Shown here: piece by piece, positions 6,221 to 57,805 of the stretch
How the letters are laid out: each line of letters starts with the position of its first letter
Position numbering within the stretch: the first letter of the stretch is position 1
DNA from: an uncultured Planctomycetota bacterium
Lineage (GTDB): Bacteria; Planctomycetota; Planctomycetia; Gemmatales; Gemmataceae
Length of the DNA stretch: 64,000 nucleotides
NCBI GenBank assembly: GCA_963784995.1
Contig: CAWATZ010000006.1
Span: forward strand, 136,853 to 200,852
Reading direction: 5' to 3'
Translations under genes and position numbers: made by a program
The notes under the pieces: model-generated
Seen by the model: the letters and a program-made list of their open reading frames with translations, nothing else
The model's database searches: none
Told to the model about the DNA's origin: nothing

Positions 6221-6348
6221 GAAGATGACAAGGTGACAAGGTGGCAAGGTGACAAGGTGACAAAGACCGAAGAGCCAGAACTGGGGGCTTCCTCCGCGGC
6301 TTCTTCTGTCACCTTGTCACCTTGTCACCTTGTCACCTTATCATCTTC
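6221..6348. repeat. intragenic 128-nt palindrome built from 8-mer tandem repeats (gacaaggt x5 on one arm, accttgtc x4 on the other), in-frame between the HATPase and receiver domains
   Basis: gaagatgacaaggtgacaaggtggcaaggtgacaaggtgacaaag ... tctgtcaccttgtcaccttgtcaccttgtcaccttatcatcttc. Encodes EDDKVTRWQGDKVTKTEEPELGASSAASSVTLSPCHLVTLSSSD. Confidence 0.85.
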
Positions 6349-11969: not shown

Positions 11970-11990
11970 GGGGGCCTCGTCACGGGGGCT

Positions 11991-12845: not shown

Positions 12846-12964
12846 CGGCTGGCCTCCGTCGGGCCTGCCCGACAGGTCGCACGCCTGCGTGCACCGGCCG
12901 GCAGGCCGGCCTGCGTTGGGGGCCGGCCTTCCCAGGCCGGCCCGGACGGGCTCGGAAGCCCGTC

Positions 12965-19023: not shown

Positions 19024-19048
19024 CCCTCTCCCACAAGGGGAGAGGGGA
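19024..19048 (-). terminator. CCCCTCTCCC-loop-GGGAGAGGGG hairpin immediately downstream of the Gfo/Idh/MocA gene stop (motif recurs at 45866 and 45984)
   Basis: cccctctcccacaaggggagagggg begins 11 nt 3' of the TAA at 19061..19059. Confidence 0.45.
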
Positions 19049-30687: not shown

Positions 30688-30776
30688 GGCCGAGCCGCGC
30701 ACGCAGCGCAGCGGAGTAAGCGGTGCGGGAGCCTGCAGGGCCGCTTACTCCGCTGCGCTGCGTGCGCGGCTCGGCC
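30688..30776. repeat. 36-bp perfect inverted repeat (ggccgagccgcgcacgcagcgcagcggagtaagcgg / ccgcttactccgctgcgctgcgtgcgcggctcggcc) with 17-nt loop, between the kinase gene and the MVP gene
   Basis: Direct reading. Possible terminator/insulator or REP-like element. Confidence 0.8.
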
Positions 30777-30879
30777 TTTCTTCTCCGGCGCAGGCCGGGG
30801 ACACAGCAGAAAGCCCACGCATGTCCTGCGTTCCCATACTGTCTCCTTTCTCTCTCCCCAACAACTGGAGGAAGTTCCA

Positions 30880-39665: not shown

Positions 39666-42452
39666 TCACTTGCCCGGCGGCAGGGGCACCACGAACGTCC
39701 AGCCCGCGCTGGTCAGGATGGCCTGGCCCGCCGGGACCTTGCGTTTCTCACCCTGCCCCTGCCAGCCGACAACAAGCTCCTCACCTTCCGAGATGCGATA
39801 GCCAAACGCTGTTCCGGCTTTGCTGTCGCCCGGCAGCGACTTCAGCACCTTCGGCGTCAGCTCCTCCAGCGTCCGGGCCTGCTGACCCGTCTCCGCCTGG
39901 TAGAGCCGCAGTGCGACCATCAGTTCGCTGGCCCACAGTCGGGTTTGCGGTTTCGGTTGGCCCCGCCCTGACCAGGGATGGTGGTCGGCGAAGTAGGCTT
40001 CGATCTGGTTGACCGGCCGGGGCAAGGACGACCAATCCACCTTGCGATGAACCAGCAATCGAACCAGCCGTTCTTGCCGGGCCTGCTCCCACGGCGTTCG
40101 CCAGACCAGGGCCATCATCCCGGCCAGCTGGCCCCGGTCGCCCGGGACGGAATGCAACTCGTTCCGAATCCACGCTTCCGGCTGCTGCACCAGGTGCATC
40201 GCCACCAGGTAATCGGCCCGCAAGCTGTTGTCCCTGTCCCGGGCGTTGGCCTTTTCCTGTTCGGTCAGCAGGTCGAGGACCTGACGCAGCAGGTCGGGCC
40301 GATTGTCCAGGCGTTCCAACCAGAGTTCAACACCCCGGAGCAGGTGGTGCTGGGCCCCCTCGGCACGCACGGCAACGTCCGTCGGTTCCAGGTGCCGTAC
40401 CTGACGAACCAGGGCCAGGCCGGTCGCCAGGTTCTCGACGAACACCGCCGGGTCACCCTGGGCTTGCCGCTCCAGGCCCCGGGCCACCAGCAGCCGGGCC
40501 GCCAGCGGAGCATGCTGCGCTGACAGCGGCGCTTCCAACCACTGGTTTCGCCCCTGCACGTCCTCGATCACACTGAGCGGCAACGGCGCCGCCTGTTCGA
40601 GTTCGCGGGCCCAGTTCTGGCGAAACACCTTGTCCAGCCAGAAAGAGAGTTCACGGTCTTCGTCCGGCCGCCAGCCCCGCTCCGCGACCAGGGACGCGAC
40701 GGAAACGAATTTGCCGTCGGTCTCTTCCAGCTTGGCGACCGCCCTCAAGGCGTTCCGTACCAGATCCCCGGCCTTCTCTTTTCTGTCAGCCGCCAGTGTC
40801 TGTTCAAACCCTTCCAGGTCCAGCTCGTCCGCGACCAGCGGCACCTCGACCACACGGTAAGCGATGGCACCGGCATACCACAGCGCTGCCAGGCCGAGGC
40901 CAAGCGTCAGCCCGACCACCGCGCGGCGGGCACCCAGATGGCCAGTCGCCCACGGCCAGAACAGCAGCCGCGACGTGAGCAACAGCAGCAGCGGCGTGCC
41001 CCAGACCTGCCAGGCGTGCAGACCGCCGACCAGCATCGACGGACCCCACAGCAGCCCCAGCAGCAGCGCCCCGCCCAGAGCCACCACCCCGGAGACGATC
41101 GGCTTGTTAATCAGCTGGCCCGCCAGAACGCCCAGGCAGAAACCATAGCCCAGCCACAGGGTCAGATAGGGCCCCAGTTGCAGGAACGGCAGGGTCCGCT
41201 CGATCTCGGTCGGTAGCACTGAAGGGTCCACCTCACGCCGCATCGCCAAGATCAGGAGCCGTACCGCCGCCGGGATCAGCAGCAGCAGGGCCACTCCGAT
41301 CGCCAGGATCAGGTGGAAACCGACCTTGACCGTCCAGACCACGCCGGGCGGCAGCCGTTGCTCGCTCAGCATGCGGCCCGAGCGTTCGGTCTGCTCGTCG
41401 GTGAAGACGGCGATGCCTGCCAGCGCACCCAGAAGCACCGTCAGCACCGGCCAGGCCGTGACTCCCAGGGGCAAGATCATCCCGATCACCGGATACGCGA
41501 CCGCCAGCCAGCAGAACAGCCGGCCCGACTGCCGCCAGTCAAGCCAGAGCAGCGCTGCCACCTGGCTGCGCCAGCGGATCGCGCTGTCCTGGCCCCCCGG
41601 CTGGCTGGCCGCTTCCGTGGGCGGAGCGATCGGGCCGGGCACCCTCTTGGCAGGCCGCTTGCGCCAGCTTTCCCGGGCGCGGCTCGGCCTCGGCCTCGGC
41701 CGGGGTTGCTCGGAGGGCCAGCCGGACGGATGCGGGGCCGTCACGATGCTGGTCGATTGCCGGCGGACGGGGAGGAGCAGGGGAGGCTCCTCGTCAGGTC
41801 CGTCGCTCTGCCGCGACCAATCGACCCGTCCATAGGTGAGCGCCGAGAGGATGATCAGGAGTTCCGCCAGCAGCACGCACAGGCAGAACAGGGGCAGCGG
41901 CCCGTAGGGAGCCAGCTCGCGGATTTGCAAGATCACGGCGTAGACGCCAATCAGCACCGGGGCCGCCAGCGCCTGGCCCACGACTCCGGCCAGGACCGCC
42001 CCCATCGAGGTCCGGGTCCGGCCCGAGAAGAACAACCCCCAGGAAAAACCCATTCCCCCCACCCCGACCAGGGCCACCAGCCCGACCGCCGCCCGGCCCG
42101 GGTCCGGAAGCGCGTCCGATCCAATCAGGATTGCCCAGAGGACCAGGACGTGAGCCAGCACCAGCGCGACGCCGCTGAGGCACTTCACCCCCCAGACCGC
42201 CAGCTTCCTGGCCGGCAGCGTTTCCAGGAACGCCGCCGTTCCGCCCTCCCGCTCCCCCGCCAGCAGGATGGCCCCGACCACCATGCCGTAGACGTAGGCG
42301 ATGGTGCCGAAGTACAGGTTGAGCACCCACCGCGGCATGTCGGGCTCCAGCACGGTGATTTGCAGCACCAGCACGACCACCGCCAGCAACGCCATGGCCA
42401 GCCAGATCAGCCGTTGCTCGCGATAGACCTTCCAGACCAGTACGCCACTCAT
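39666..42452 (-). CDS. 928-aa fusion protein: two tandem ABC-2-type permease domains plus a roughly 400-aa C-terminal helical domain (paralogue 1 of 3)
   Basis: ABC-2 hallmark ILLAGEREGGTAAFLETLPARKLAVWGVK near the N-terminus, and a second copy FTDEQTERSGRMLSEQRLPPGVVWTVKVG after a Pro/Arg-rich linker. C-terminal domain conserved with the two upstream paralogues (LVARGLERQAQGDPAVF...LEELTPKVL...VPLPPGK). Confidence 0.8.
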   Translation of the reverse strand: MSGVLVWKVYREQRLIWLAMALLAVVVLVLQITVLEPDMPRWVLNLYFGTIAYVYGMVVGAILLAGEREGGTAAFLETLPARKLAVWGVKCLSGVALVLAHVLVLWAILIGSDALPDPGRAAVGLVALVGVGGMGFSWGLFFSGRTRTSMGAVLAGVVGQALAAPVLIGVYAVILQIRELAPYGPLPLFCLCVLLAELLIILSALTYGRVDWSRQSDGPDEEPPLLLPVRRQSTSIVTAPHPSGWPSEQPRPRPRPSRARESWRKRPAKRVPGPIAPPTEAASQPGGQDSAIRWRSQVAALLWLDWRQSGRLFCWLAVAYPVIGMILPLGVTAWPVLTVLLGALAGIAVFTDEQTERSGRMLSEQRLPPGVVWTVKVGFHLILAIGVALLLLIPAAVRLLILAMRREVDPSVLPTEIERTLPFLQLGPYLTLWLGYGFCLGVLAGQLINKPIVSGVVALGGALLLGLLWGPSMLVGGLHAWQVWGTPLLLLLTSRLLFWPWATGHLGARRAVVGLTLGLGLAALWYAGAIAYRVVEVPLVADELDLEGFEQTLAADRKEKAGDLVRNALRAVAKLEETDGKFVSVASLVAERGWRPDEDRELSFWLDKVFRQNWARELEQAAPLPLSVIEDVQGRNQWLEAPLSAQHAPLAARLLVARGLERQAQGDPAVFVENLATGLALVRQVRHLEPTDVAVRAEGAQHHLLRGVELWLERLDNRPDLLRQVLDLLTEQEKANARDRDNSLRADYLVAMHLVQQPEAWIRNELHSVPGDRGQLAGMMALVWRTPWEQARQERLVRLLVHRKVDWSSLPRPVNQIEAYFADHHPWSGRGQPKPQTRLWASELMVALRLYQAETGQQARTLEELTPKVLKSLPGDSKAGTAFGYRISEGEELVVGWQGQGEKRKVPAGQAILTSAGWTFVVPLPPGK

Positions 42453-42492
42453 GGTCCTGTCTCCGTATCTCTTGTCCTCGCTGTCCCGGTTG

Positions 42493-45400
42493 CTATTTCG
42501 ACTTCGTGATTTTGTCCCACCGGCCCGGGAAAACCTTGACCACGGGCTCGTTCAGGCTTTCGCGCAATTGTTCCCGGATGGCCAGCGTCGCCGCTCGTAC
42601 CGTCAATCCTTTGACGGAAACCTTGCCGTATTTTGCGCCCAAATCGATTTCGCCATTGTCGGCGTTGACCTTGTAACTGCCGTAAATCGGCGCCCACGAC
42701 CAGGTGCCGGAAACCAGGATCGTTAGCTCTTGCCCACCAACGACTCGATGGGGCTGCCTGGGTTCGGACACGTTTCGCCAGCCCGAGACGTGGCCAGCCG
42801 GCCTGATTGAAGCGGCTGGGTTTTTCAATTTCTTGGCTAACTGAGACATCACGGCTGTGCAGGCTTCTTCGAGCGTCAGGCCCTTGACGAGGACGCTGCC
42901 GTAACGCTCGTCGAGGTCGAGAGTGCCATCGGCGTCAACGAAGTAAGGGCCACCAATTGGATCGTTCGGGAGCCCTTCCGCCACTGTAACTTGCAGGACG
43001 TCGTAGGGTTTCAGGATGACCTGCGGCAGAGGCACCAGGAACATCTCACTCTTGAAGGTCAAAAGCGCCTGCCCCGGCGGAAGAGGCAATTCCTCGGGCC
43101 AGTCCGGGTTTTCTTTCCCGTCGGAAAGCCAGTAGTCGATCGGCTCTCCGGTGCCGGGGTCAATGGGCACACTCGGCAGAATGTTTGGCGTCAGTTCCTC
43201 CAGATTCCGGGCTGGCCGACCGGCCTCTGCCTGGAACAGACGTAGGGCCACCATTACTTTCCGAGCCTGCACCGGGGTGGTGGTGTCCTTGAATGGGGCG
43301 TAGGTGTTCCAGGAGTGATACCCCGGAAACAGCACCTTGCGCGACAGCAGCGAGGGCAAGGGACAGGCAACCCCACCCTCGTTGGCCAGCTGGCGGATCA
43401 GCCGCTGCAGCCGGGCTTGCTCCCAGGGCGTCTGCCAGGCGGTCGCCATCAGGGCCGCCAGGAGGTCGCCTTCGGCGTGCTGGCCCCGGACGACCTGGCA
43501 AGCCCACGATTCCGGCCGCCTGACCGCGTTCATGGCGATCAGGTAATCGGCGCGGTAGGCATTGTCCGCTTCCTCCGCAGTGGCCTGTTCGTGTCGGCGC
43601 AGCAGCTCCAGGGCCCGGCGCAGCAGATCGGGCCGGCCGTGCAGGCGCTCCAGCCAGCGCTCCACGCCGCGCAGCAAGTCCCGTTCCGCAGGCTCGGCAA
43701 TGGGATAAAGCGGGGCCGGCGCCAGGTGACGCAGTTGCCGGATCAGGGCCAGCCCGGTTTCCAGGTGTTCGAGAAACACCGCTGGGTCGCCCCGAGCTTG
43801 CAACTGCAGCCCTCGCGCCACCAGCACCTGAACCACCTCCGCGTCCTGGTTCCGAAACGTTGCAGTCGTGCGATCCCCTGGGAACCTGCTTTGCACGTCC
43901 TCGACCACGCCGAGCGGTCGCCGAACCGTTTCGGCCAGCTTGTCGGGCCAGGGGCATCGGTAGAACGCATCCAGCCAGCTGGATGGCGTCTCCCGTTCGT
44001 GTTTCCACCACCCCTCGCTGGGAATGTTCAGGCTTTGCAGTTCGTCCCACCCGATCCTCCATCTTTGCGGCCGGTCCCATTTGCCCCTCCATTCTTTCTC
44101 CTGGAGCGTGGTAACTCCGTTGACGATCGTGCGGAGGCGAAACCCGGTCTCGGTTTTGCGCGCCGCCTCCAGGGAACGCTCGAAGCCCGCCAGGTCCAGC
44201 CGATCCTCCACCAGCGGCACTTCGATCACACGATAGGTCAGGGCCCCGACAAACCACAGCACCGCCAGCGTCAGCCCCGAGGCCAGCCGCAACGTGGCCC
44301 TGCGCGAGCCGAGTTGGTCGGTCGCCCACGGCCAGAGCAACAACCGGACCGTCAGCAGAAGCAGCACCGGCACACCCCAGTATTGCCAGGCGTGCAGACC
44401 GCCCACCAGCGCCGACGGCAGCCACAGTCCCACCAACAGCAGCGAGGCAGCCACGGCGACCGCTCCCACAATCACCGGCTTGCGGAAGAACAAGCCGCAC
44501 AGACAGCTGACGCTGAAACCATGCACGAGCCCCAGAATCAGATACGGTCCCATCTGCACGTAGGGGGCCAGCAGGTGCATCGGTGTCGGGTCTTTGGGCC
44601 TGGCTCCCAGCACTTGCAGGAACGCGACCCGGACCGCAGCCGGGAGCAGCATCAGCTGGACCACGCCCAGCGCCAGGACCAGGCGGGCCCCGACCTTCAC
44701 GGCCCAGACCCGGCCCAGTGGCAGCCGTTGCTCCGCCAGGAAACGCGCGCTGGCCTGGACCTGTTCGCCGGCGAAGACACTGACCCCGGCGATCACGCCC
44801 AGCAGTAGCGTCAGCACCGGCCAGCCCAGCACCCCCAGGGACAGGCAGCCCGCGACCAGGCCGGCACCCGCCAGCCACAGGAAGAGTTTGCCCCCCTGAC
44901 GCATCTCCAGCCAGAACACCGCGCTCAGCTGCCTCACCCAGCCCGGTGGCCCCGTGCCATCGGCCGGCTCCGGCACCGGCCGGGCGGGTGCTGCCGAGGG
45001 GGGTTGACGCGGCGGGGTCAGCCAGGGGTCTTCCGGTCCAACGTCCGGGGCTGGCTGCTGCCGCTGTTCGCCGAGGGAGGGCCCATCATCGAGGAGGAAG
45101 CGAGCGGCCTGCAGTTCCAGCTCCGGGGAGGCGGGATCGGACTCCGGAGGGAAATCGCCCGCGCACACCTTCCTGTCATCCACTTGCGGCCGCTGATCGC
45201 GCCGGGCCTCGCTCGCCCCCGATCCCAGGATCAGTCCCACGACCACCGGCAGACAGCACAAGACCAGGGAGAGGGGCTCGACCGGCGAGCCGGGCGGCGT
45301 ATGCATCAGGTCAAGGAGCGCGTTGGAGATGGCAATGGTGATCGGTGCCGCCACGATCTGTCCCACCATCGCGGCGAAGATCGCTCCCATGGCGGTTTTG

Positions 45401-45834
45401 GTTTGGCCCGAGAAGAACAGTCCCCAGGCGAAACCCAGCGTTGCCACTCCCGCCAGGGCCAGCAGCAGCACCAAGCCCCAGGACCAATCCACCAGGATCG
45501 CATCCAGCAGCAGGAGCCAGAGCAACACCACCTGGGCCAGCACCAGCACCAGACCGGACCAGCATTTGACCCACCAGACGGTCACCCGTTTGACCGGCAG
45601 GACTTCCAGAAAGGTCGCGGTCCCCGCCTCCCTCTCGCCGGCCAGCAGCACCGCCCCGACCACCAGCCCGTAGACGTACGCAAACAGGCAGAACAGCCGG
45701 CCCAGGGCTTCCCGCTGCAGGTCGCGCTCCAGCAGCGTCAACCGCAGCAGCACGGCGCACCCCGCCAGCACGGCCATGGCCAGCCAGACCAGGCGTTGCT
45801 CCCGGTAGACCTTCCAGACCAGCACTTTGGTCAT
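42493..45834 (-). CDS. 1113-aa paralogue 2: double ABC-2 permease fusion with the same C-terminal domain plus about 175 extra residues containing two Poly_export/SLBB-like beta-grasp repeats
   Basis: MTKVLVWKVYREQRLVWLAMAVLAG...LLAGEREAGTATFLEVLPVKRV. C-terminal extension ILKPYDVLQVTVAEGLPNDPIGGPYFVDADGTLDLDERYGSVLVKGLTLEEACTAVMSQL and a second VNADNGEIDLGAKYGKVSVKGLTVRAATLAIREQL unit resemble Wza-type polysaccharide-export domains. Confidence 0.8.
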   Translation of the reverse strand: MTKVLVWKVYREQRLVWLAMAVLAGCAVLLRLTLLERDLQREALGRLFCLFAYVYGLVVGAVLLAGEREAGTATFLEVLPVKRVTVWWVKCWSGLVLVLAQVVLLWLLLLDAILVDWSWGLVLLLALAGVATLGFAWGLFFSGQTKTAMGAIFAAMVGQIVAAPITIAISNALLDLMHTPPGSPVEPLSLVLCCLPVVVGLILGSGASEARRDQRPQVDDRKVCAGDFPPESDPASPELELQAARFLLDDGPSLGEQRQQPAPDVGPEDPWLTPPRQPPSAAPARPVPEPADGTGPPGWVRQLSAVFWLEMRQGGKLFLWLAGAGLVAGCLSLGVLGWPVLTLLLGVIAGVSVFAGEQVQASARFLAEQRLPLGRVWAVKVGARLVLALGVVQLMLLPAAVRVAFLQVLGARPKDPTPMHLLAPYVQMGPYLILGLVHGFSVSCLCGLFFRKPVIVGAVAVAASLLLVGLWLPSALVGGLHAWQYWGVPVLLLLTVRLLLWPWATDQLGSRRATLRLASGLTLAVLWFVGALTYRVIEVPLVEDRLDLAGFERSLEAARKTETGFRLRTIVNGVTTLQEKEWRGKWDRPQRWRIGWDELQSLNIPSEGWWKHERETPSSWLDAFYRCPWPDKLAETVRRPLGVVEDVQSRFPGDRTTATFRNQDAEVVQVLVARGLQLQARGDPAVFLEHLETGLALIRQLRHLAPAPLYPIAEPAERDLLRGVERWLERLHGRPDLLRRALELLRRHEQATAEEADNAYRADYLIAMNAVRRPESWACQVVRGQHAEGDLLAALMATAWQTPWEQARLQRLIRQLANEGGVACPLPSLLSRKVLFPGYHSWNTYAPFKDTTTPVQARKVMVALRLFQAEAGRPARNLEELTPNILPSVPIDPGTGEPIDYWLSDGKENPDWPEELPLPPGQALLTFKSEMFLVPLPQVILKPYDVLQVTVAEGLPNDPIGGPYFVDADGTLDLDERYGSVLVKGLTLEEACTAVMSQLAKKLKNPAASIRPAGHVSGWRNVSEPRQPHRVVGGQELTILVSGTWSWAPIYGSYKVNADNGEIDLGAKYGKVSVKGLTVRAATLAIREQLRESLNEPVVKVFPGRWDKITKSK

Positions 45835-45859
45835 GGTCCTGTCTCCGTTTCGGGCTTTC

Positions 45860-46010
45860 TTTCTCCCCTCTCCCCTTGAGGGAGAGGGGGTGGGGTGAGG
45901 GGAAGAGCCTGGCTGATTTATCGTTTCGCACTGATCCAGGTGAGCGCGAAACGATAAATCGAAGACAACCCTTCACCCCCAAACCCTCTCCCTCAAGGGG
46001 AGAGGGGAGA
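45860..46010. repeat. composite nested palindrome: CCCTCTCCC hairpin, family-1 REP core (tgatttatcgtttcgcac...gcgcgaaacgataaatcga), CCCTCTCCC hairpin
   Basis: 45866-45890 cccctctccccttgagggagagggg; 45914-45962 REP core; 45984-46007 ccctctccctcaaggggagaggg. Lies between the paralogue-3 stop and the paralogue-2 start. Confidence 0.85.
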
Positions 46011-46020
46011 AGGATCTCCG

Positions 46021-48859
46021 TCACTTCTGCGGCGGCAGCGGCACCCGGAACGTCTCCCCCTTGATGGTCAAGGTCCCCTGCCCCGCTGGACCTTTGTCGC
46101 CGCCGGCCAGCCGATAGCCGACCGGCTGGCCAGTGGCGCGGTCAATGGGCACCGCCGGGAGAATGTTCGGCGTCAACTCCTCCAGCGTCCGGGCCGGCCG
46201 ACCGGCCTCCACCTGGAAAAGCCGCAGAGCGACCATCAATTCCCGGGCCTGCACCCGGGTCGTGTCCTGGAGAGAGGCGTAGCTGTTCTGGGATTGGTAA
46301 CCCGGAAACAGCAACTTGCGCGTCAGCGGCGGCGGCAAGGGATGAGCCACGGCCCCCTCGTTCGCCAGTTGGCGGATCAGCCGCTGCAGCCGGGCCTCCT
46401 CCCACGGCGTCTTCCAGGACGCTGCCGTCAGCCCGGCCAGCAGGTTGCCGTCCGCGTGCTGGGAACGCAAGACCCTGCACGCCCACGAATCCGGGCCGCC
46501 CGCCACCTTCACCGCGTTCATCGCCACCAGGTAATCGGCACGCAGGGCGTTGTCTCCTTCCTTCACTGTCGCCTGCTCGTGCCGGCGCAGCAGCTCCAGG
46601 GCCCGGCGAAGCAGATCGGGCCGGCCGTCCAGACGTTCCAGCCAGCGCTCCACGCCGCGCAGCAGGTCCAGTTCCGCGGACACGGCATGGGGATAGAGGG
46701 GTGACGGCTCCAGATGGCGAACCTGCCGCACCAATGCCAGCCCCGTCTCCAGGTGTTCGAGAAACGCAGCCGGGTCGCCCCGGGCTTGCAACTGCAAGTC
46801 CTCGGGCCACCAGCACCTGGGCCACCGAGGGTGCGAGTTCGATTGCCAGCGCCGGCGTTGGAATCAGCTGATCCTTCGGACTCATGCCCTGCACGTCCTC
46901 GACCACGCCGAGCGGTCGGCGCACTGTTTCCCCTAACTGCCCGCACCACGGCAGACGGAAGAACTCATCCAGCCAGCGGGACAACCACTCCTCCTTGGCC
47001 GGCCAGCCATCGGCGGGAATCTTCAGCCTCTCCAGCTCGCTCCACCCATCCCCCCATCCCTCCCGCTGCAGCCTGGGGACCTGGTTCAGAGCGGTACGGA
47101 GGCGAATCCCCGTCTCGGTTTTGCGCGCGTCCTCCAGAGATTGCTCAAAGCCGGCCAGGTCCAGCCGGTCTTCCACCGAGGGCACCTCAAGGACACGGTA
47201 GGCGAGCGATCCGACAAACCACAGGAGCGCCAGGGTCAGCCCCGAGGCCAGCCGCACCACAGCTGTGCGTGAGCCAAGCCGGCCGGTCGCCCACGGCCAG
47301 ACCAGCAGCCGCACCGTCAGCAACAGCAGGATCGGCAGGCCCCAGTATTGCCAGGCGTGCAAGCCGCCGACGACCAGCGAGGGAACCCACAGCAGAAGGA
47401 ACAGCAGCGACGCGGCCACGGCGATGGCCCCGGCGATCACCGGCTTGCGGAAGAGCAGGCCGCACAGGCAGCCGATGCTGAAACCATGCACCAGCCCCAC
47501 GGTCAGGTACGGTCCCAGTTGCAGATACGGGGCCAGCAGGTGGAGCTGCGTCGGGGCTGCGTCGAAAGCGCCGAATTCCAGCACCTCCCGGATCGCGACC
47601 CAGACCGCAGCCGGGAGGAGCATCAGCTGGACACAGGCCAGCCCCAGGGCCAGGCGGGCGCCGACCTTGAAGGCCCAGATTCGGCCCAGCGGCAGCCGTT
47701 GCTCGGCCAGAAAGCGCTCGGTGGCCTGGACCTGTTCGCCAGCGAAGACGCTGACCCCGGCGATCACGCCCAGCAGCAGCGTCAGCACCGGCCAGCCCAG
47801 CACCCACCACAAGGGCACGCAGCCCCCGACCAGGGCGGCACCCCCAGCCACAGGAACAGCATCCCGGACTGCCGCATCTCCAGCCAGCACACCGCGGCCA
47901 GCTGCGAACGCCAGGCCGGCAGCGGCGTTGCGGCGGCGGCCGGGCCCTTTTCCGGCGTTGAGGAAGCAGGCGTTTCCTCGCTCCGTTCCTTCTCTCTGGC
48001 GGGCCTATTTGCTGGCCGTCGCGAATCCTCTTGCCTTGCTCTTCGCGGCCGAGCCCGCCAGGGACCTGCCTCCGGGTCTTCCGGCTCGGGCCATTCGTCA
48101 AGGAGACTCGGTGCCGGCCGCTCGAACCGGGGAAGGGGTGGAGGAGAATCCTGCTCGCGACTCCTGCCGAGCCACGGGCACGCGCTGATCGAGCCAGACG
48201 TGGAACACACCGGAAGCGATGATTGGCGCCACGATCAGCAGCAGGCCAAGCACCAGGAAGACCGTTCGCCGGATCGCCAGGAGTTGCTCGTCCGACAGGC
48301 TTCCGGGCGTTGCTTGCTGCACGTCGGTTCCGATCACGTAAATGAGGCCGTCCAGCCAGAACAGCGGCAGCACCGCGACCAGCTGTCCCCCGATCCCGGC
48401 GAAGATGGCCCCCATCGCGGTTTGCATTCGAGCCGAGAAGAACAGGCCCCAGGCAAAGCCCAGCAGCGCCGCGCCCAGCATCACCAGCAGAAACCACAGT
48501 CCCCAGGGCCAATCGCGCATGACCTCGGACAGCAGCAGATACCACAGGAACAGCACCTGCGTCAGGATCAGGAGAACGCCCGCCGTGCATTTCACCCACC
48601 AGACCGATACCCGCCTGACCGGCAAGGATTCCAGGAAAGCCGCCGTCCCTCCCTCCCTTTCCCCGGCCAGCAGGATGGCCCCGACCACCAGCCCGTAGAC
48701 GTAGGCAAACGAACCGAAGAGAGTGCTCAAGGTGTCCCGCGGCAGGTCGCGCTCCATGATGGTCACGCGGAGCAGCACGGCACCGGCCGCCAGCACCGCA
48801 ATGGCCAGCCAGACCCAGCGCTGCTCCCGGTACACCTTCCACACCAGCACCCCGGTCAT
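46021..48859 (-). pseudogene. paralogue 3 of the double ABC-2 permease fusion family, disrupted by at least three frameshifts
   Basis: N-terminus 48859..48098 (MTGVLVWKVYREQRWVWLAIAVLAAG...LLAGEREGGTAAFLESLPVRRV). Second permease domain in frame 46142..47890 (GWPVLTLLLGVIAGVSVFAGEQVQATERFLAEQRLPLGRIW). C-terminal domain in frame 46021..46797 (MQLQARGDPAAFLEHLETGLALVRQ...VPLPPQK). A 1-bp length difference relative to paralogue 2 in ...gcaagtcctcgggccaccag. Confidence 0.7.
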
Positions 48860-49806
48860 GGGACTTCCTCCCGGTTGCTTTCCGTCAGGTCGGACCCCAG
48901 CAGTGAGCCATTCGCGGACGGCTGCGGCCGCTGCTGACCCAGCAAAGCCGTGTACATCTCCTCCAGGTCGAGCGGCTTTTCCTCCACCTCGCTGACGCCG
49001 TCGCTGCTCGCCAGCTGGACCAGGGCGTCCGGGTCCGGATCGAGCAGCACCAGCTCCATCTGCCGGCCCAGCTGCTCGGTTTGCAGCAGCGTGCCCAGCC
49101 CGCTGGGATCGAAGGCCGTCTCACAGCGCATCCGCACCCGCACAAAGCGCTGCCGGACTTCATCCAGCAGCCCCGCCAGCAGCAGCTTGCCGTTGGAGAG
49201 GAAGGCGACGTGGCTGGCGACCCGCTCCACCTCGGCCACCGCATGGCTGGAGATCAGGATGGTCCGCCCGGCCCCGGCCTGCTCGACCATGCCGGCCAGG
49301 AACTCCTTGCGCGTGAACAGGTCCAGGCCCGAGGTCGGCTCATCGAGAATCAGCACCTCGGGATCGATCGCCAGGGCCAGGGCCAGGCCGACCTTGGCAT
49401 AGCCGCCCTTGGACAGGTCGCGCAGCCGGGCGCCGCGCTCCAGGCCCAGACGCTCGGCGATCCCCTGAAAACGCGATCGGTACGCCGGCTTGTGAAAGCC
49501 GCCGACGAACCAGCCGATCTCATCGACCGTCATCCAGTCGTAGAACTTCGGCCGTTCCGGGACGTAACCGATGCGCTGCCGCAGCTCCAGGGCGTCGCGC
49601 CAGCAATCCTTGCCAAGCACCTCGGCCCGGCCGCCGTCGGCCGGCAGCTGACCGGTGAGGATGCGGATGGTGGTCGATTTGCCCGCTCCGTTGTCTCCCA
49701 GAAGAGCGCAGATGGCCCCCGAGGAGACGGTCAGATCCAGGCCCTGCACGGCGACCTTGCGGCCGAAACGCTTTCGCAGATGGTGAATGTTGATGACCGC
49801 GCTCAC
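48856..49806 (-). CDS. ABC transporter ATP-binding protein (ABC-2/DrrA-type)
   Basis: Walker A GDNGAGKSTTIRIL, signature LSKGGYAKVGLALAL, Walker B ILDEPTSGLD. The stop overlaps the paralogue-3 start. The start overlaps the gntR stop. Confidence 0.85.
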   Translation of the reverse strand: MSAVINIHHLRKRFGRKVAVQGLDLTVSSGAICALLGDNGAGKSTTIRILTGQLPADGGRAEVLGKDCWRDALELRQRIGYVPERPKFYDWMTVDEIGWFVGGFHKPAYRSRFQGIAERLGLERGARLRDLSKGGYAKVGLALALAIDPEVLILDEPTSGLDLFTRKEFLAGMVEQAGAGRTILISSHAVAEVERVASHVAFLSNGKLLLAGLLDEVRQRFVRVRMRCETAFDPSGLGTLLQTEQLGRQMELVLLDPDPDALVQLASSDGVSEVEEKPLDLEEMYTALLGQQRPQPSANGSLLGSDLTESNREEVP

Positions 49807-50195
49807 TGATGTTTCCTCCCGTTGACCCGGGCCAGTTCGTCTTCGACCAGCCGCAGGATCTCAGCCGGCGACAGGGCGCTCTCCACCGCCTCCCGCAAGG
49901 CGGCCCGGATGCGCCCCTGAACGATGTGCTTGCGTCGCGCCTGACACAGCTCCGGAGCCCTGGGCGTCACTTCCATCCCCTTGCCGCGCACCACCGATAC
50001 CAGCCCCTGCCGCTCCAGCTCCTGGACCGCCCGGGCCGCCGTGTTGGGATGCACCAGCAGCCGCTGAGCCAGGTCGCGCACGCTGGGGATCATCGTCCCC
50101 GGAGTCAGTCCGCCCGAGGCAATGGCGAAGATGACCTGCGTGACGATCTGCTCGTAGACCGGGACGTTGCTGTCCTTTTCAATGGAAATCAGCAT
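49803..50195 (-). CDS. GntR-family (YtrA-like short) transcriptional regulator
   Basis: 130 aa: PVYEQIVTQVIFAIASGGLTPGTMIPSVRDLAQRLLVHPNTAARAVQELERQGLVSVVRGKG, a winged HTH. First gene of the minus-strand operon. Confidence 0.85.
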   Translation of the reverse strand: MLISIEKDSNVPVYEQIVTQVIFAIASGGLTPGTMIPSVRDLAQRLLVHPNTAARAVQELERQGLVSVVRGKGMEVTPRAPELCQARRKHIVQGRIRAALREAVESALSPAEILRLVEDELARVNGRKHQ

Positions 50196-50398
50196 GCTGG
50201 CACCAATCCCCGGTTTTCCGCACTGAAGCCAGGCAAGGGCAATAAGAACACCGACCCGGGGTGGAAGTGTACCAGGTCCACGTTACACTAGGACGGTGGG
50301 TGCGGCAAGAGGCAATCCGGGGCAGATCAGCGAAAAAAGTTGACTGAGGAAGTTGCGCGGCCCTGTTTTTTGTTTTTGAACTGCCTTGCTTCGTTCGA

Positions 50399-50559
50399 CT
50401 TTTGCCGATTTGGAGTGCGGCAGTAGCTTTGCTCTGCCGCTTTTGTTTCTTCTGTTGGTTTTTGTTTCTTGGACTGGCCTAACAAGGGAAAAGCAAAAAC
50501 AAAAGACCAAACAAAAGCGGCAGAGCAAAGCTACTGCCGCACTCCATAATCGGCAAAAG
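50399..50559. promoter_or_regulatory. AT-rich 160-bp nested palindrome (about 47-bp near-perfect outer stem, each arm containing its own gcggcag...ctgccgc hairpin), 200-360 bp upstream of the gntR operon start
   Basis: tttgccgatttggagtgcggcagtagctttgctctgccgcttttgtt pairs with aacaaaagcggcagagcaaagctactgccgcactccataatcggcaaa. Local GC is far below the window average, with ttttgtttt runs. Confidence 0.45.
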
Positions 50560-50585: not shown

Positions 50586-50879
50586 TTACCGCACCACGTG
50601 AAACCCCGTGAACTGTCCCGTCGCCGGCCGTTCCTCGATCTTCTCCTCATCGACGTAGTTCCGCATCCGCTGCCGCACTTCCTGGAGAAAGCGCTGCACT
50701 TCCGGCTCAGCTCCCTCCACCAGCAGCTGCACCCGTCCATCGGAGAGATTGCGCACCCAGCCGGTCACGTTGTGGCCGTGCGCGATCGAAACCGCCGTCG
50801 CCCGGAAGCCGACACCCTGAACCATCCCGGAGTAATACACCATCCGGGCCGTCCGGCCGCTGCCGCTCTCCGCGCTCAT
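50586..50879 (-). CDS. acyP: acylphosphatase
   Basis: VQGVGFRATA...GWVRNLSDGRVQLLVEGAEPEVQRFL, the classic acylphosphatase signatures. Confidence 0.85.
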   Translation of the reverse strand: MSAESGSGRTARMVYYSGMVQGVGFRATAVSIAHGHNVTGWVRNLSDGRVQLLVEGAEPEVQRFLQEVRQRMRNYVDEEKIEERPATGQFTGFHVVR

Positions 50880-54527: not shown

Positions 54528-56158
54528 TCATTCCGCCCCAACGTGGGTGCCCTTCTCGGCCACCGAGCGCTTCATCAGCAGCACCAGGAACACCAGCAGG
54601 ATCCCCAGGACGGCGCACACCCAGAAGACGTCCAGGTAGGCCTGCTCCGACGCCTGCCGAAGCCGTTCCGCTGCCAGCCGCTTCAGGGTATCCTGGTGGG
54701 CGCCGACCGGATCGCTGGTCAGGTGCCGGAAGAAGGCCTCGCCCCGCTGGAACAAGGACTGGACGGGTAGGTTGAGCGGGGTGAGGTGATCGTCCAGACG
54801 CGCCAGGTGGAACTGCAGCCGGCGTTCCTGGATGGTCTGGCCCAGCGAGGTCCCCATGCTGCCCCCCTCATTGCGCAGCAGGGCAAACAGTCCTACTGCC
54901 GCCCCCCGCAGTTCCCGGGGGACGTACAGAAAGGCGGCCACGTTGATCGGAGCGAAGATCAGCGACAGGCCGATGATCATCACCACCCGCGGCCAGATCA
55001 CCTGCCAGGGACTGATCTGCAGGTTCGTCAGCGCCATCCAGTAACAGCCGGTGGCCATGATCAGCAGACCCGGGGCGATCAGCCAGCGGGCGTCCGTCCC
55101 CCGGCCCAGCAAGAAGCTGACGACCAGCATCACGGCGATGGCGAAGAAACCCGAGGGCATCATCACCAGACCCGAGTGATAGGCATCGTAGCCGAACAGG
55201 TTCTGGAGCAGGCCCGGCAGCGCCACCGTGGCGGCATACAGCACGCCGAAGGCGCAGACAATGATCAGACAGGACGCGGCCAGGTTGCGCTCGCCCAGGA
55301 CCCGCAAGTTGACCACCGGGTTGGCAATCCGCAGCTCCCGGACGATCAGTCCTCCCAGCGCCAGGACGAAGAGGATCAGCAGCGTCTGCACGCGCCAGAA
55401 GGGGTCGCTCAACCAGTCCCACTGCTGTCCCTTGCTGAGCATCACTTCCCAGCTGACCATGGCGACGGCCAGGAGCACCAGACCGCCGGTGTCGAAGTTC
55501 CACGCCGGCCTGCCGGCGCCGCTACGCTGCGGTTCAGGTGGGCACGCTCCTCCTTGAGGTAGTCCGGGTCTTCCACCAGGGCGGAACAGGCCAGGACGCT
55601 GAGGACGCCGACCGGGAGGTTGATGTAGAAGATCCAGCGCCAGTTGTAGGCATCGACCAGCCAGCCTCCCAGCGTTGGGCCGACAATGGGTCCGAACAGG
55701 GCGGCCACGCCGAACATGGTCATGGCCGCCCCCTGTTTCTCGCGCGGGAAGCTGTCGATCAGGATGGCCTGGCTGGACGGCTGCAGTCCGCCACCGGCCA
55801 GGCCCTGAAGCACCCGGAACAGGATCAGCTGCGGCAGGCTGCCCGCGATGCCGCACAGCCCCGAGGCAATGGTGAAGACGGTGATGGACAGCAGGAAGTA
55901 ATTGCGGCGGCCGAAATGGGCGGAGAGCCAGCCGGTGATCGGCAGCACAAAGGCGTTGGCGGCCAGGTAGCTGGTGATCACCCACTCGCTGTCGATTTCC
56001 GCGGCCGACAGGCCGCCCGCAATGTAGCGCAGGGCCACGTTGGTGACGGTGGTGTCCATCACCTCCATGAAGGTGGGCACGACGACGGCGACGGCGACCA
56101 GCCAGGGGTTGATCTGGCGTCGGCCCACCAGTCCAGGAGAAAGCGCTGCGCTGCTCAC
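54528..56158 (-). pseudogene. MFS drug-efflux transporter (DHA2/EmrB-QacA family, 14 TM) with one frameshift near 55515
   Basis: N-terminal 238 aa (MEVMDTTVTNVALRYIAGGL...FGRRNYFLLSITVFTIASGLCG) in frame 55442..56158. The remainder (GRPAWNFDTGGLVLLAVAMVSWEVMLSKG...) continues in frame 54528..55985. Confidence 0.75.
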
Positions 56159-56263: not shown

Positions 56264-57805
56264 TCAGGGCCTGGGGTTGATCGGGGCCCTCGGCAGCGGC
56301 GCCACCGCTTGCAGCTTCTTGCCGGCATTGGGCCCCGTGGGCGGCTCCTTGTAGCAGACGTAGGGTATCGCCGACAACCCGACGAACAGGGTGAACTGGT
56401 CCGGGTCGTAGTCGGTCAAATCGATGCGCACCGGCAGCCGCTGCACGATCTTGACGAAGTTGCCGGTGGCGTTCTCCGGCGGCAGCAGCGCCAGGGTCTG
56501 CCCGGTGCCCATGGTGAAGCCGGTGATCCGGCCGTGGAACTCATGCTGCTTGCCGTACGTGTCGATCTCGATGCGCACGTGCTGGCCGATGCGCAGGTCG
56601 GCCAGCTGGGTTTCCTTGAAGTTGGCGTCGATCCAGATCTCCGTCAGCGAGCGGACGGCCATCAGCTGCTGGCCCACGGCGACGTAATCGCCGGGGTTGA
56701 CGTTGCGGCGCGTGACCACGCCGTCGATGGCACTGACAACGTCACAGTAGCGCAGGTTCAGCTCGGCCTGCTCCAGGTCGGAGCGCGCCTTGAGGAGCCT
56801 GGCCTCGGCCTGTTTGACGGCGGGGGCGTTGGGGATCATGCGGGCGAGGATCTGGTTGAGATTGCCCGTGGGCGATTGCTTGTAGAAGGCGTCCAGGATC
56901 TCCTTGGGGGTAGCGGTCCACGAGGGCGGAACGTAGCCGATCTGGGTGCCGACCTGGAGCAGATCGCCGAGGGCCGCCCGGACGGTGGAGAAGGTCTGAT
57001 CGAGGTTGGCCGGCACCTCGGCCAGGTCCTGGCCGGCGGGGGGCTTGGCGGGCAGACCGAGGCCGACTCGGTCGGCATAGACCGTTTGCAGGGCCTGCTC
57101 GACGGCCGCCTCCTCCACCTTGACCGCCTGGCGGCGCTGGTCCAGCTCTTCCTTGCTGATGCCGCCGCTTGGCGCCAGCTCCTCACCGCGCTTGAAGTTG
57201 GCCCGGGCCAGCGCCAGCTTGGCCTTCTCGCTGTTGAGGGTGGCCACGTCGGCGCGGACCTTGGCGATCTGCGCATTGACGTCCTCGATGGCATGCTCGA
57301 GCTTGAAGCGATTGGCCCGGGCCTGGCCCACCAGGCTGCGCACCTGAGCCCTGGCCGCGGTCAGGTCCGTTTCGGCCTGGACCACCACGGCCTTCTGGAT
57401 CGCGACCTGGACCTGGTACGGTTCCTTGTCGATCTCGATCAGGACGTCTCCAGCTTTCACGTGGTAGTTGTCGTCCGCCAGCACGCGCTGGACTTGCCCG
57501 GCCACGCGGGGCGCCACCAAGGTGACGTGGCCATTGACGTAGGCATCGTCGGTGGAAATGGTGTTCAGCGCCGTTTCCACCCACGGAATAAGGAACCACA
57601 GGCCAATGCCCAGCACGACGGCTCCGCTTCCGATCCAGAGCCATTTCCGCCACGAAGGCTTATGGCGCGGCGGCGGCGCGGGAGGCTGCAGCTGAGGAGT
57701 GGGCGACGTGTCCCCCGGAGGGGGTGGTTGCGACGACACCGCGCCGGGACGAGCCGGCCGGCCGCTGTTCGGAGCTTCCCGATCCCGCTCGTTTGGGTTG
57801 TCCAT
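56264..57805 (-). CDS. HlyD-family membrane fusion protein (EmrA-like)
   Basis: 513 aa. N-terminal Pro-rich cytoplasmic tail, a TM helix WLWIGSGAVVLGIGLWFLI, coiled-coil and lipoyl/beta-barrel motifs (VTLVAPRVAGQVQRV, VVSAIDGVVTRRNVNPGDYV). Confidence 0.8.
   Translation of the reverse strand: MDNPNERDREAPNSGRPARPGAVSSQPPPPGDTSPTPQLQPPAPPPRHKPSWRKWLWIGSGAVVLGIGLWFLIPWVETALNTISTDDAYVNGHVTLVAPRVAGQVQRVLADDNYHVKAGDVLIEIDKEPYQVQVAIQKAVVVQAETDLTAARAQVRSLVGQARANRFKLEHAIEDVNAQIAKVRADVATLNSEKAKLALARANFKRGEELAPSGGISKEELDQRRQAVKVEEAAVEQALQTVYADRVGLGLPAKPPAGQDLAEVPANLDQTFSTVRAALGDLLQVGTQIGYVPPSWTATPKEILDAFYKQSPTGNLNQILARMIPNAPAVKQAEARLLKARSDLEQAELNLRYCDVVSAIDGVVTRRNVNPGDYVAVGQQLMAVRSLTEIWIDANFKETQLADLRIGQHVRIEIDTYGKQHEFHGRITGFTMGTGQTLALLPPENATGNFVKIVQRLPVRIDLTDYDPDQFTLFVGLSAIPYVCYKEPPTGPNAGKKLQAVAPLPRAPINPRP

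Follow-up and report, generated by a model that had tools for sequence, protein, structure and literature searches.

A minus-strand operon (39666-50195) in the window, the 64-kb stretch of DNA analyzed here, raises the question of what is done by one short repressor gene and one ATPase gene placed ahead of three very large permease genes. The operon runs from gntR through an ABC ATPase gene to three paralogous genes in tandem, each for a fused double ABC-2 permease (Table 1). The reading favored here, which has about an even chance of being correct, is that the operon is an ABC-2 (type V-like) export cassette that stands on its own and represses itself. It would most likely act as an inducible "extruder" in envelope defence.

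Table 1. Features of the operon, with positions in the 64-kb window
Feature	Position	Strand	Description
Putative YtrA-type operator AGTGTA-N12-TACACT	50266-50289		71-94 nt 5' of gntR start codon
gntR	49803-50195	-	130-aa YtrA-subfamily GntR repressor: winged HTH + short C-terminal tail
ABC ATPase	48856-49806	-	316 aa: NBD + ~90-aa C-terminal extension; start overlaps gntR stop by 4 nt
Paralogue 3	46021-48859	-	~946 aa reconstructed; three 1-nt frame changes
Paralogue 3, in-frame pieces	48146-48859, 47842-48147, 46796-47842, 46024-46794; stop 46021-46023	-	
Long palindrome between paralogues 3 and 2	45858-46014		38-nt arms + inner 18-nt hairpin
Paralogue 2	42493-45834	-	1113 aa; stop codon 42493-42495
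Paralogue 2, membrane part	44224-45834	-	Residues 1-537: TMD1, disordered linker, TMD2, TM13 (hydropathy + family alignment)
Paralogue 2, periplasmic solenoid + pilin-like domain	43024-44223	-	Residues 538-937; aligns with modelled paralogue 1 domain
Paralogue 2, C-terminal extension	42496-43023	-	Residues 938-1113; two Poly_export domains (PF02563)
Paralogue 1	39666-42452	-	928 aa
Paralogue 1, TMD1	41808-42452	-	Residues 1-215; six TM helices (hydropathy, AF2 helices, NosY-like fold)
Paralogue 1, Pro/Arg-rich cytoplasmic linker	41580-41807	-	Residues 216-291; pLDDT <50 at residues 220-286
Paralogue 1, TMD2 + extra 13th TM helix	40848-41579	-	Residues 292-535 (hhalign, AF2 helices, hydropathy, positive-inside pattern)
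Paralogue 1, periplasmic domain	39666-40847	-	Residues 536-928 + stop codon; alpha-solenoid of ~300 aa, one long helix, five-strand sheet (pilin-like)

Integrity of the three permease genes

The coordinates and strand assigned to gntR, the ATPase gene, paralogue 2 and paralogue 1 in the initial annotation were reproduced, as were the 4-nt overlaps at the gntR/ATPase and ATPase/paralogue 3 boundaries and the presence of a single ATPase gene in the operon. All of the peptide motifs quoted there were found in the translations. The three tandem copies are true paralogues, but paralogue 3 is not one open reading frame, as it contains three frame changes.

These frame breaks, which are missing from the initial annotation, were located by three-frame translation and by tblastn with two orthologues (P0004 and gene 1 of locus L003). 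The first (~48146) lies in the linker and is followed by an in-frame stop codon at 48098-48100, the second (~47842) is a base missing from a G5 run inside TM7, and the third (~46795) is an extra T within the conserved ARGLQLQARGDP motif. The reconstructed protein keeps 26 of 26 family-invariant and 60 of 64 nearly invariant residues and contains no further stop. Either the indels are assembly errors and the gene is intact in vivo, or it is a very recent pseudogene.

The indel-type frame breaks are the sole point in favor of regarding the three copies as an assembly duplication or collapsed repeat, the chance of which is negligible. Assembly duplication, named in the initial annotation as something that would overturn its proposal, is impossible because paralogues 1-3 are only 45-73% identical as proteins, and the artefact reading is refuted by this divergence. 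The copies are also unlike in length and domain content, similar arrays are present in independent assemblies, and paralogue 1 has a 99.9% match in an independent public contig. When folded as RNA, the palindrome that separates paralogues 3 and 2 reaches a free energy of -117.6 kcal/mol (z = -10.3), and a solo copy of its 24-mer is located at 19024-19047.

Architecture of the fused permeases

The two consecutive ABC-2 domains proposed for each permease were confirmed, with paralogue 1 as the model: TMD1 and TMD2 are homologous six-helix domains (hhalign probability 95.6%, E 1.1e-8) and the fold is NosY-like. The permeases of the window match Pfam ABC-2 models below threshold only, and paralogue 2 gives weak ABC2_membrane_3 and ABC2_membrane_5 matches at residues 48-203. 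Their ABC-2 type is upheld by the fold and by the matches across 46 family members (ABC2_membrane_2 in 26/46, ABC2_membrane_3 in 24/46 and ABC2_membrane_4 in 12/46). In TMD1 of paralogue 1, VLVWKVYREQR forms the N-terminal connecting helix and LLAGEREGGTAAFLETLP is a putative coupling-helix motif. The putative ATPase-contact cytoplasmic motifs are the best-conserved parts (80% and 65% identical across all three paralogues), and TM3-TM6 of TMD1 are the least conserved (25% identical). The Pro/Arg-rich linker described earlier is present and predicted to be disordered; the TM6-TM7 loop of paralogue 1 (106 residues, 207-312) contains 18 Lys+Arg. The linker is short or missing in most relatives in the family alignment.

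The side of the membrane on which the ~390-aa C-terminal domain lies had been left to topology prediction. Hydropathy and the AF2 model give 13 TM helices that follow the positive-inside rule, and the 13th puts this domain in the periplasm. The possibility of low-complexity sequence, considered in the initial annotation, is not borne out, as the domain is conserved and confidently folded (AlphaFold model, pLDDT 90), with an alpha-solenoid and a small pilin-like subdomain; the earlier description of a conserved helical domain of ~400 aa fails only at its end, which is a five-strand sheet. No relative of the periplasmic domain was found in Pfam or PDB, and a Pfam scan of the domain in paralogue 2 gave no match. 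Its role, for which the initial annotation suggested substrate handling or scaffolding, is a guess because it has no characterized relative. When compared with the GspG/EpsG pseudopilin of type II secretion (PDB 4lw9), the pilin-like subdomain lacks both a prepilin leader and a methylation motif, lies within a larger protein, and has a sheet that is shortened in the window's subclade; a search for Pfam T2SSG or PDB sequence matches to it gave none.

It is quite unlikely that the cassette is a mechanotransducer like NosDFY or GldFG, in which ATP hydrolysis would move the fused solenoid and pilin-like domain for periplasmic work; the pilin-like (DUF1559) proteins that abound in these bacteria are one possible target. 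In NosDFY, NosY cooperates with the periplasmic protein NosD, and in Foldseek it is NosY that the membrane domain resembles most (probability 1.00; TM-score on the target 0.54-0.59; 17-18% identity); Rv1217c (8k1n_C) is also matched, at a probability of 0.94. L007 has a DUF1559 (PF07596) gene that overlaps the stop codon of the permease gene, but this neighbor is found in one locus only. The missing sequence-level T2SS-G match and the reduction of the pilin-like part in the window's own subclade also speak against this reading, which is not distinguishable from export. NosY (NosDFY(L); PDB 7o0y, 7znq) is likewise an ABC-2 membrane protein with a large periplasmic partner, but it is a homodimer of separate chains and NosD is a separate beta-helix protein, whereas both the TMDs and the periplasmic domain are fused here. 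The machine of NosY is not a classical exporter, and its nos gene cluster context is absent from this locus.

The Poly_export domains of paralogue 2, which are missing from the initial annotation, match PF02563 in two stretches (E 6.7e-16, 58.7 bits versus a cut-off of 28). The Poly_export domain is periplasmic in its known members, and this ending agrees with an outward-facing C-terminus. The extension has a GC content of 58% and a GC3 of 0.70, versus a GC3 of 0.79-0.85 over the remaining gene, which suggests that it is a late addition. No word-sharing homologue of the extension was found, and it is absent in the other 45 scanned family members and all fetched loci. Paralogue 2 shares two PF02563 domains, above the Pfam threshold, with OPX/Poly_export proteins (Wza, KpsD), but it is without SLBB domains, a lipoprotein signal and an outer-membrane helix, and its Poly_export domains are joined to an inner-membrane ABC permease, in this paralogue only among the sequences examined.

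The Poly_export fusion is easier to reconcile with export of a polymer than with extrusion of a toxin. An exporter of envelope polymers or glycolipids like KpsMT, Wzm-Wzt or TarGH is nonetheless an unlikely alternative. Its ABC-2 pump would flip a lipid-linked glycan or extrude it, the periplasmic solenoid would be a built-in co-polymerase or adaptor, and the Poly_export domains of paralogue 2 would touch an outer-membrane conduit. Exporters of polysaccharides and teichoic acids are among the type V ABC-2 transporters, and the two bona fide Poly_export domains and the large, elongated periplasmic domain are as expected of such a system. However, Poly_export is found in 1/46 scanned members and in none of the other fetched loci, and the deviant GC3 points to its late acquisition. 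In addition, the loci compared have no conserved genes for glycosyltransferases or polymer synthesis beside the cassette, and having its own YtrA-type autorepressor is a trait typical of an inducible defence system rather than a housekeeping exporter.

Regulation and conservation of the cassette

The YtrA-like character of GntR is supported by its size and its best NCBIfam matches, PmtR (6e-17) and the Rv1152 family, both of which are under their cut-offs; residues 14-76 match PF00392 (E 6e-14). The motif AGTGTA-N12-TACACT has one match in the 64-kb window (0 expected by chance), and it also precedes gntR in L007 and, in a form that differs at one base, in L005 and L009. The YtrA site of B. 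subtilis is AGTGTA-13bp-TACACT (PMC8060467), with identical half-sites and a spacer of 13 bp rather than 12 bp. A GntR dimer would bind the motif in the window and keep the operon repressed. The ATPase matches PF00005 (E 1.5e-25), and its nearest NCBIfam families are the exporter ATPases GldA, DrrA and PmtA. Its translation contains a Walker A motif (GDNGAGKST), signature (LSKGG), Walker B motif (LILDEP) and H-loop (SSH).

In 13/13 loci reaching far enough upstream (L001, L002, L004, L005, L007, L009, L010, L013, L017, L019, L020 and the P0007 and P0021 contigs), the genes come in the order GntR-ATPase-permease and often overlap by 4 nt. The genes flanking the cassette vary between loci; therefore, the module looks self-contained and outside any biosynthetic cluster. 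Orthologues of gntR and the ATPase gene in related loci encode proteins with 39-75% and 52-77% identity, respectively, i.e., 39-77% for the pair versus 30-53% for the permease.

This far better conservation of GntR and the ATPase fits a conserved repressor-ATPase interface and is a point in favor of a transporter that is mainly a sensor, which reports an envelope signal to GntR by flux sensing (cf. BceAB, MbrAB), with little detoxification and with the paralogues as alternative sensors. MbrR-MbrA is a precedent (bioRxiv 10.64898/2026.02.18.706565). This explanation is improbable, as known sensing transporters export too and the 64-kb window contains a single copy of the operator, so that no wider regulon is visible in it.

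The permease family comprises at least 795 clusters at 50% identity (E<=1e-30), the best 150 of which are all full length. The solenoid-bearing double-permease architecture is thus widespread, yet it is named in no database. The claim that it is not a described architecture was overstated, since the form with the extra domain is common and the structure of a fused double permease has already been solved (Rv1217c-Rv1218c). The novelty claimed for the threefold tandem amplification was also overstated because arrays recur in related contigs. Most loci have a single permease copy, and tandem arrays (3, at least 3, at least 4 and at least 5 copies) mark the window's subclade. The arrays in related contigs (at least 3, 4 and 5 copies) follow a single GntR gene and a single ATPase gene where the start of the contig can be seen.

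Known counterparts and proposed mechanism

Similar cassettes include YtrA-YtrBCDEF of B. subtilis, PmtR-PmtABCD of S. aureus and MbrR-MbrAB of S. salivarius, in which a short GntR/YtrA repressor is followed by a DrrA/PmtA-type ATPase and an ABC-2 permease, as here. Unlike these, the present cassette belongs to a Planctomycetota-like diderm, has both membrane domains in one chain with an extra TM helix and the ~390-aa periplasmic domain, and has a permease gene amplified in tandem. Rv1217c of M. tuberculosis contains two non-identical fused ABC-2 (type V) TMDs served by an ATPase homodimer (PDB 8k1n; PMC11406275). It shares with the present system the fused double TMD, the one ATPase gene and an ATPase signature other than the classic LSGGQ. 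However, Rv1217c is a single-copy gene, and its product consists of 548 aa and therefore has no room for a 13th helix and periplasmic domain. No sequence-level match was found between Rv1217c and the permeases here.

According to the favored reading of an inducible export cassette, GntR repression would be lifted by an envelope-related signal, either because the repressor binds a ligand or because it is captured by the ATPase in its ATP-bound state. The latter has been shown for MbrR-MbrA in streptococci (bioRxiv 10.64898/2026.02.18.706565). Two copies of the lone ATPase would bind one fused permease at its connecting and coupling helices to form a pseudo-heterodimeric transporter like Rv1217c-Rv1218c, whose ATP-driven movements would push out a compound located in the membrane or periplasm. 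The periplasmic domain may recognize the expelled compound or hand it on. The tandem paralogues may be alternative membrane subunits with different specificities, in competition for the single ATPase, and the two Poly_export domains gained by paralogue 2 would reach further into the periplasm.

To our knowledge, YtrA-type cassettes have been characterized only in Gram-positive bacteria and archaea. The mechanism proposed here extends their logic, by analogy, to a Planctomycetota-like organism. The operon is an interesting variant of a known exporter type, in which the gene for the membrane subunit has been multiplied in tandem in this lineage.

Organization of the operon and its three permease genes

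The gntR stop codon overlaps the start codon of the ATPase gene, and the ATPase stop codon overlaps the ATG of paralogue 3, by 4 nt each. Spacers of 186 nt and 40 nt separate paralogue 3 from paralogue 2 and paralogue 2 from paralogue 1, respectively, and an identical sequence, ACGGAGACAGGACC-ATG, lies ahead of both paralogue 2 and paralogue 1. Every peptide motif quoted for these proteins in the initial annotation was recovered in the translation.

Coordinates of the operon genes and of the three frame changes in paralogue 3
Feature	Position (nt)	Strand	Product or context
gntR	49803-50195	minus	130 aa
ABC ATPase	48856-49806	minus	316 aa
Paralogue 3	46021-48859	minus	interrupted, about 946 aa once reconstructed
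Paralogue 2	42493-45834	minus	1113 aa
Paralogue 1	39666-42452	minus	928 aa
Break (a)	near 48146		unconserved linker; then in-frame stop at 48098-48100
Break (b)	near 47842		TM7; CTGGGGGTGCC one base short
Break (c)	near 46795		conserved ARGLQLQARGDP motif; GGACTTGCAG with one extra T

Paralogues 1 and 2 share 45% identity over their full length, and paralogues 2 and 3 are 73% identical over the second membrane half (TMD2) and the C-terminal domain, with an identity of about 50% between either of them and paralogue 1. The three copies are thus genuine paralogues, and an assembly duplication was ruled out because their divergence is too great. The dN/dS values between paralogues (0.33-0.74) are unreliable because dS is distorted by the strong GC3 bias.

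A palindromic element of about 160 nt (45858-46014; -117.6 kcal/mol, z = -10.3) occupies the spacer between paralogues 3 and 2. It is made of CCCCTCTCCCCTTGAGGGAGAGGG-type palindromes, of which a solo 24-mer copy is located at 19024-19047, and it looks like a REP/MITE-like repeat that might influence how paralogues 2 and 1 are transcribed. An Rfam search gave no match, and a consensus scan for promoters and terminators gave no match above chance. An inverted repeat (50411-50546) with 57-nt arms (89% complementary), placed between an acylphosphatase gene (50586-50879) and the promoter region of gntR, probably keeps the operon insulated from this neighbour. On the other flank of the operon, a convergent gene (38134-39645, plus strand), which ends 20 nt from the paralogue 1 stop codon, encodes an unusual fusion of a TIGR02996 domain, leucine-rich repeats and a C-terminal sigma-70 region 4. 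The window also contains a gene (30723-33122, plus strand) encoding a 799-aa bacterial homologue of the eukaryotic major vault protein with MVP_shoulder (E 1.4e-43) and Vault repeat domains.

The three frame changes in paralogue 3 were located by three-frame translation and by tblastn with two intact orthologues (P0004 and L003 gene 1). With three single-base corrections the gene encodes 946 aa with no further stop. All 26 family-invariant residues are retained in the corrected protein, as are 60 of the 64 nearly invariant ones (58 of 64 in paralogue 2), and the outgroup orthologues are slightly nearer to paralogue 3 than to paralogue 2; long-term decay of paralogue 3 is therefore not evident. 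Frame changes are also present in two other genes of the window. A hybrid histidine kinase/response regulator gene (5160-7180, plus strand) has one near 5775, at GCAAGAAG, where an A-run is probably one base short, and this break is either a sequencing indel or the mark of a pseudogene. An MFS transporter gene (54528-56158, minus strand), downstream of an HlyD-family gene (56264-57805), lies in two frames with a break near 55450, one ORF matching positions 5-183 of the Pfam MFS_1 profile and the other positions 189-346. Six long genes of the window (787-1113 aa) are without breaks.

A public Logan contig from run ERR11523662 (L008) is 99.9% identical to positions 39495-41555, so that run includes this organism or a very close one. 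The contig differs from the window by one single-base indel, which breaks paralogue 1 in the contig, and hence one or both of the data sets contain indel noise. For a single gene of 2.8 kb, three breaks are more than a uniform error rate would lead one to expect. On a rough estimate, assembly indels are somewhat likelier than not to be the cause of the breaks in paralogue 3, and a very recent pseudogene is estimated, equally roughly, at somewhat short of an even chance. An exact look-up with the first paralogue 3 fragment and the ATPase, for an independent assembly of paralogue 3, returned no record, and the DNA pattern around break (c) had no match in a scan of genome contigs.

The fused permease, its ATPase and its periplasmic domain

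The full-length AlphaFold model of paralogue 1 (pLDDT 85.2, pTM 0.79) and its hydropathy give the order six helices, Pro/Arg-rich linker, six helices, a 13th helix (TM13) and the C-terminal domain; the linker is disordered (pLDDT <50, residues 220-286). The charge distribution fits the positive-inside rule with the N-terminus inside, and with this predicted topology the C-terminal domain would be periplasmic. The two membrane halves, TMD1 and TMD2, are homologous (hhalign probability 95.6%, E 1.1e-8, 149 columns). The permeases of the window match the Pfam ABC-2 models below threshold (E 1e-4 to 3e-2; 14-22 bits vs cut-offs of 25-32). Among 46 members of the permease family, ABC2_membrane_2, ABC2_membrane_3 and ABC2_membrane_4 were found in 26/46, 24/46 and 12/46, respectively, the ABC2_membrane_2 count being taken at E<=0.01 (best E 6.6e-10).

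Foldseek searches with the full model retrieved NosY (7o0y and 7znq; probability 1.00, TM-score on target 0.54-0.59), the fused mycobacterial permease Rv1217c (8k1n_C; probability 0.94) and ABCG25 (probability 0.77-0.84). As modelled, the transporter shows the features of the ABC-2/type V fold, with a six-helix, non-swapped TMD and connecting and coupling helices, and the conserved N-terminal and TM2-TM3 motifs sit at the positions expected for these helices. By analogy, VLVWKVYREQR (N-terminal) and LLAGEREGGTAAFLETLP (TM2-TM3) would form the connecting and coupling helices, respectively, through which the permease touches the ATPase. Conservation among the paralogues is highest in these two motifs (80% and 65% identical across all three, respectively) and lowest in TM3-TM6 of TMD1 (25%), a pattern that fits three alternative subunits sharing one ATPase and differing in their membrane cavity. 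In Rv1217c, a solved case, a single chain carries two type V TMDs that are not identical and works with an NBD homodimer (PMC11406275). The homologous TMDs, the single ATPase gene and the Rv1217c-Rv1218c precedent suggest a working unit of two TMDs and two NBDs. As Rv1217c-Rv1218c shares the fused double TMD and the one ATPase gene, this arrangement is already known.

The ATPase matches PF00005 (E 1.5e-25), and its translation contains Walker A (GDNGAGKST), signature (LSKGG), Walker B (LILDEP) and H-loop (SSH) motifs, followed after the NBD by a C-terminal extension of about 90 residues. The closest NCBIfam families are GldA, DrrA and PmtA. A NosDFY/GldFG-like mechanotransducer, as one rival reading of the transporter, is clearly improbable.

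A separate model of paralogue 1 residues 536-928, built with 49 sequences, has a pLDDT of 90.4 and a pTM of 0.91. This periplasmic domain of about 390 aa after TM13 is modelled as an alpha-solenoid, in which helices pair over about 300 residues, followed by a long helix and a five-strand sheet. Low-complexity sequence in the C-terminal region was ruled out by the confident fold and the conservation. In the wider family the domain ends with ...ALRLYQAExGxPAxxLxxLVPxYLxxxPxDPFDGxPFRYRLS...GQGILWSVGxDxxDDGG...DxIFLVPLPP, and the sheet region is shorter in the subclade of the window. Foldseek retrieved nothing specific for the domain, there was no Pfam, NCBIfam or PDB sequence match to it, and of the PDB profile searches one gave no match and another a chance match only. 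Used as the sole query, the domain retrieved only proteins of this family, either full-length or as fragments, and revealed no new architecture. One candidate for a stand-alone domain (P0165) was rejected, being a broken gene in a frameshift-rich contig.

The last part of the domain, from about residue 835 of the 928, resembles a pilin. The pseudopilin GspG has a prepilin leader with a cleavage/methylation motif and a hydrophobic N-terminal helix, whereas paralogue 1 has no such motif, and its pilin-like part has no Pfam match to the T2SSG model (GspG, PF08334) even at E<=10 and no PDB sequence match. With neither a prepilin motif nor a sequence-model match, membership is not established and the resemblance is treated as a lead.

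Residues 938-1113 of paralogue 2 contain two Poly_export (PF02563) domains, matched in two stretches (58.7 bits vs a cut-off of 28). This domain type is periplasmic in its known members, so its place at the end of paralogue 2 agrees with a periplasmic C-terminus. OPX proteins combine a lipoprotein signal, SLBB and an outer-membrane anchor; paralogue 2 lacks the full architecture, the Pfam scan of it detecting no SLBB or other OPX domain, and its Poly_export domains form the C-terminal tail of an inner-membrane protein. The tail (42496-43023) has 58% GC and a GC3 of 0.70, vs 0.79-0.85 in the rest of the gene and about 0.85 in the rest of the operon, which suggests recent acquisition from elsewhere. 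It gave no homologue as sole query in a word-indexed search and was absent from the other 45 family members scanned and from the fetched loci. Judged by sequence, it looks like a late fusion specific to the paralogue 2 gene. The tail is the main support for polymer or glycolipid export, a rival reading that is unlikely overall.

The GntR regulator and the spread of the cassette

The gntR product contains a PF00392 winged HTH at residues 14-76 (E 6.3e-14, 51.8 bits vs a cut-off of 27), followed by only about 54 residues. A protein of 130 aa with such a tail has the layout of the YtrA subfamily (about 120-130 aa, with a very short C-terminal effector/dimerisation region). Among NCBIfam families, the YtrA-type PmtR (E 6e-17) and the Rv1152 family score best, both under the equivalog cut-offs. 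The gene lies in an operon with ABC transporter genes, as also in 13 related loci or contigs. A putative operator, AGTGTA-N12-TACACT, is located at 50266-50289, 71-94 nt upstream of the gntR start codon; it occurs once in the 64-kb window, with 0 occurrences expected by chance. YtrA of B. subtilis binds AGTGTA-13bp-TACACT (PMC8060467); the half-sites are the same to the base, whereas the spacer is 12 bp here and 13 there. The exact motif also occurs upstream of gntR at -36 in one related locus (L007), with the variants AGTGTG-N12-TACACT at -74 in L005 and AGTGTA-N12-TACACA at -43 in L009, and a rearranged ACACT/AGTGT palindrome is present in L001 and L002. By these sequence features the regulator fits the YtrA subfamily in the respects that could be checked.

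In an exhaustive search, 1.84 billion cluster representatives were compared with the profile, and 4579, 1864 and 795 proteins matched at E<=1e-3, E<=1e-10 and E<=1e-30, respectively; the best 150 all span the profile completely, with lengths of about 600-1180 aa. The family is thus large, with at least 795 clusters at 50% identity (E<=1e-30). It had seemed rare because a word-indexed protein search with paralogue 1, which returned only 8 relatives, had reached its sensitivity limit, as the exhaustive search showed; a scan of genome contigs with the A5 patterns gave no true relatives. Those family members that were looked up are either unnamed or listed as 'hypothetical protein', and neither Pfam nor NCBIfam has a model of the periplasmic domain.

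The order GntR-ATPase-permease, i.e. the cassette, is kept in every locus that extends far enough upstream (13: L001, L002, L004, L005, L007, L009, L010, L013, L017, L019, L020 and the P0007 and P0021 contigs). Identity to the window proteins is 39-77% for GntR and ATPase and only 30-53% for the permeases. The flanking genes vary between loci, and several are typical of Planctomycetota (PSCyt2/PSD1, DUF1501, DUF1559). In L007, a DUF1559/SBP_bac_10 (pilin-like) gene (11528-13168) overlaps the permease stop codon; this overlap, seen in one locus only, may link the cassette to pilin-like proteins.

Most loci contain one permease gene, and tandem arrays occur in the subclade of the window. At least three permease copies are present in L003 and at least five in L004, the latter after one GntR and one ATPase gene; the P0004 contig contains four tandem genes, at least two of which are confirmed family members. 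The first member of the L004 array (P0006, 10001-12052) has a duplicated TMD1 and no C-terminal domain. The L004 contig has many frame breaks, one of them in the ATPase gene. In a neighbour-joining tree, paralogues 2 and 3 are recent sisters in a clade with P0004, P0009 and L003 gene 1, and paralogue 1 belongs to an older branch; the arrays therefore mix old and recent duplications.

Proposed mechanism and significance

In the proposed mechanism, a GntR dimer would repress the operon from the AGTGTA-N12-TACACT site until an envelope signal frees it, either on ligand binding or because the ATP-bound ATPase captures the repressor, as described for MbrR-MbrA (bioRxiv 10.64898/2026.02.18.706565). 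Two copies of the ATPase would bind one fused permease, and ATP-driven movements would expel a compound located in the membrane or periplasm, which the periplasmic domain may recognise or hand on. The paralogues would serve as alternative heads for one motor. A mainly sensory role for the system is very unlikely.

An inducible defence exporter is favoured over a housekeeping polymer exporter, on indirect evidence and at about an even chance, because of the self-contained, repressor-controlled design, the absence of conserved biosynthetic neighbours and the diversified membrane cavity. The rival readings partly overlap with the defence exporter and with each other. A wider proposal, 'one engine, many heads', joins three parts: a single ATPase and repressor serve an expandable array of interchangeable permeases, the periplasmic solenoid and pilin-like domains give these differing target specificities, and one permease reaches toward the outer membrane via its Poly_export domains. 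Taken jointly, these parts make a doubtful proposal, more improbable than probable by a wide measure. If true, it would describe a modular, rapidly diversifying machine for envelope defence or surface remodelling, specific to Planctomycetota and centred on a periplasmic domain without a known relative.

New features of the system are the 13th helix with the periplasmic solenoid/pilin-like domain, which has no described relative, the spread of the cassette in a diderm lineage, the tandem permease arrays with a single ATPase gene, and the one-off Poly_export fusion in paralogue 2. Current understanding is not overturned, as known kinds of parts appear in a new combination. Studies of YtrA-repressor/ABC-2 logic come from Gram-positive bacteria; in the present case this logic is found in a Planctomycetota-like diderm lineage whose operator half-sites are kept to the base, and the operator offers a directly testable handle on regulation. 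The arrays with one ATPase gene constitute a natural experiment in which the specificity of an ABC transporter diversifies and the motor is unchanged.
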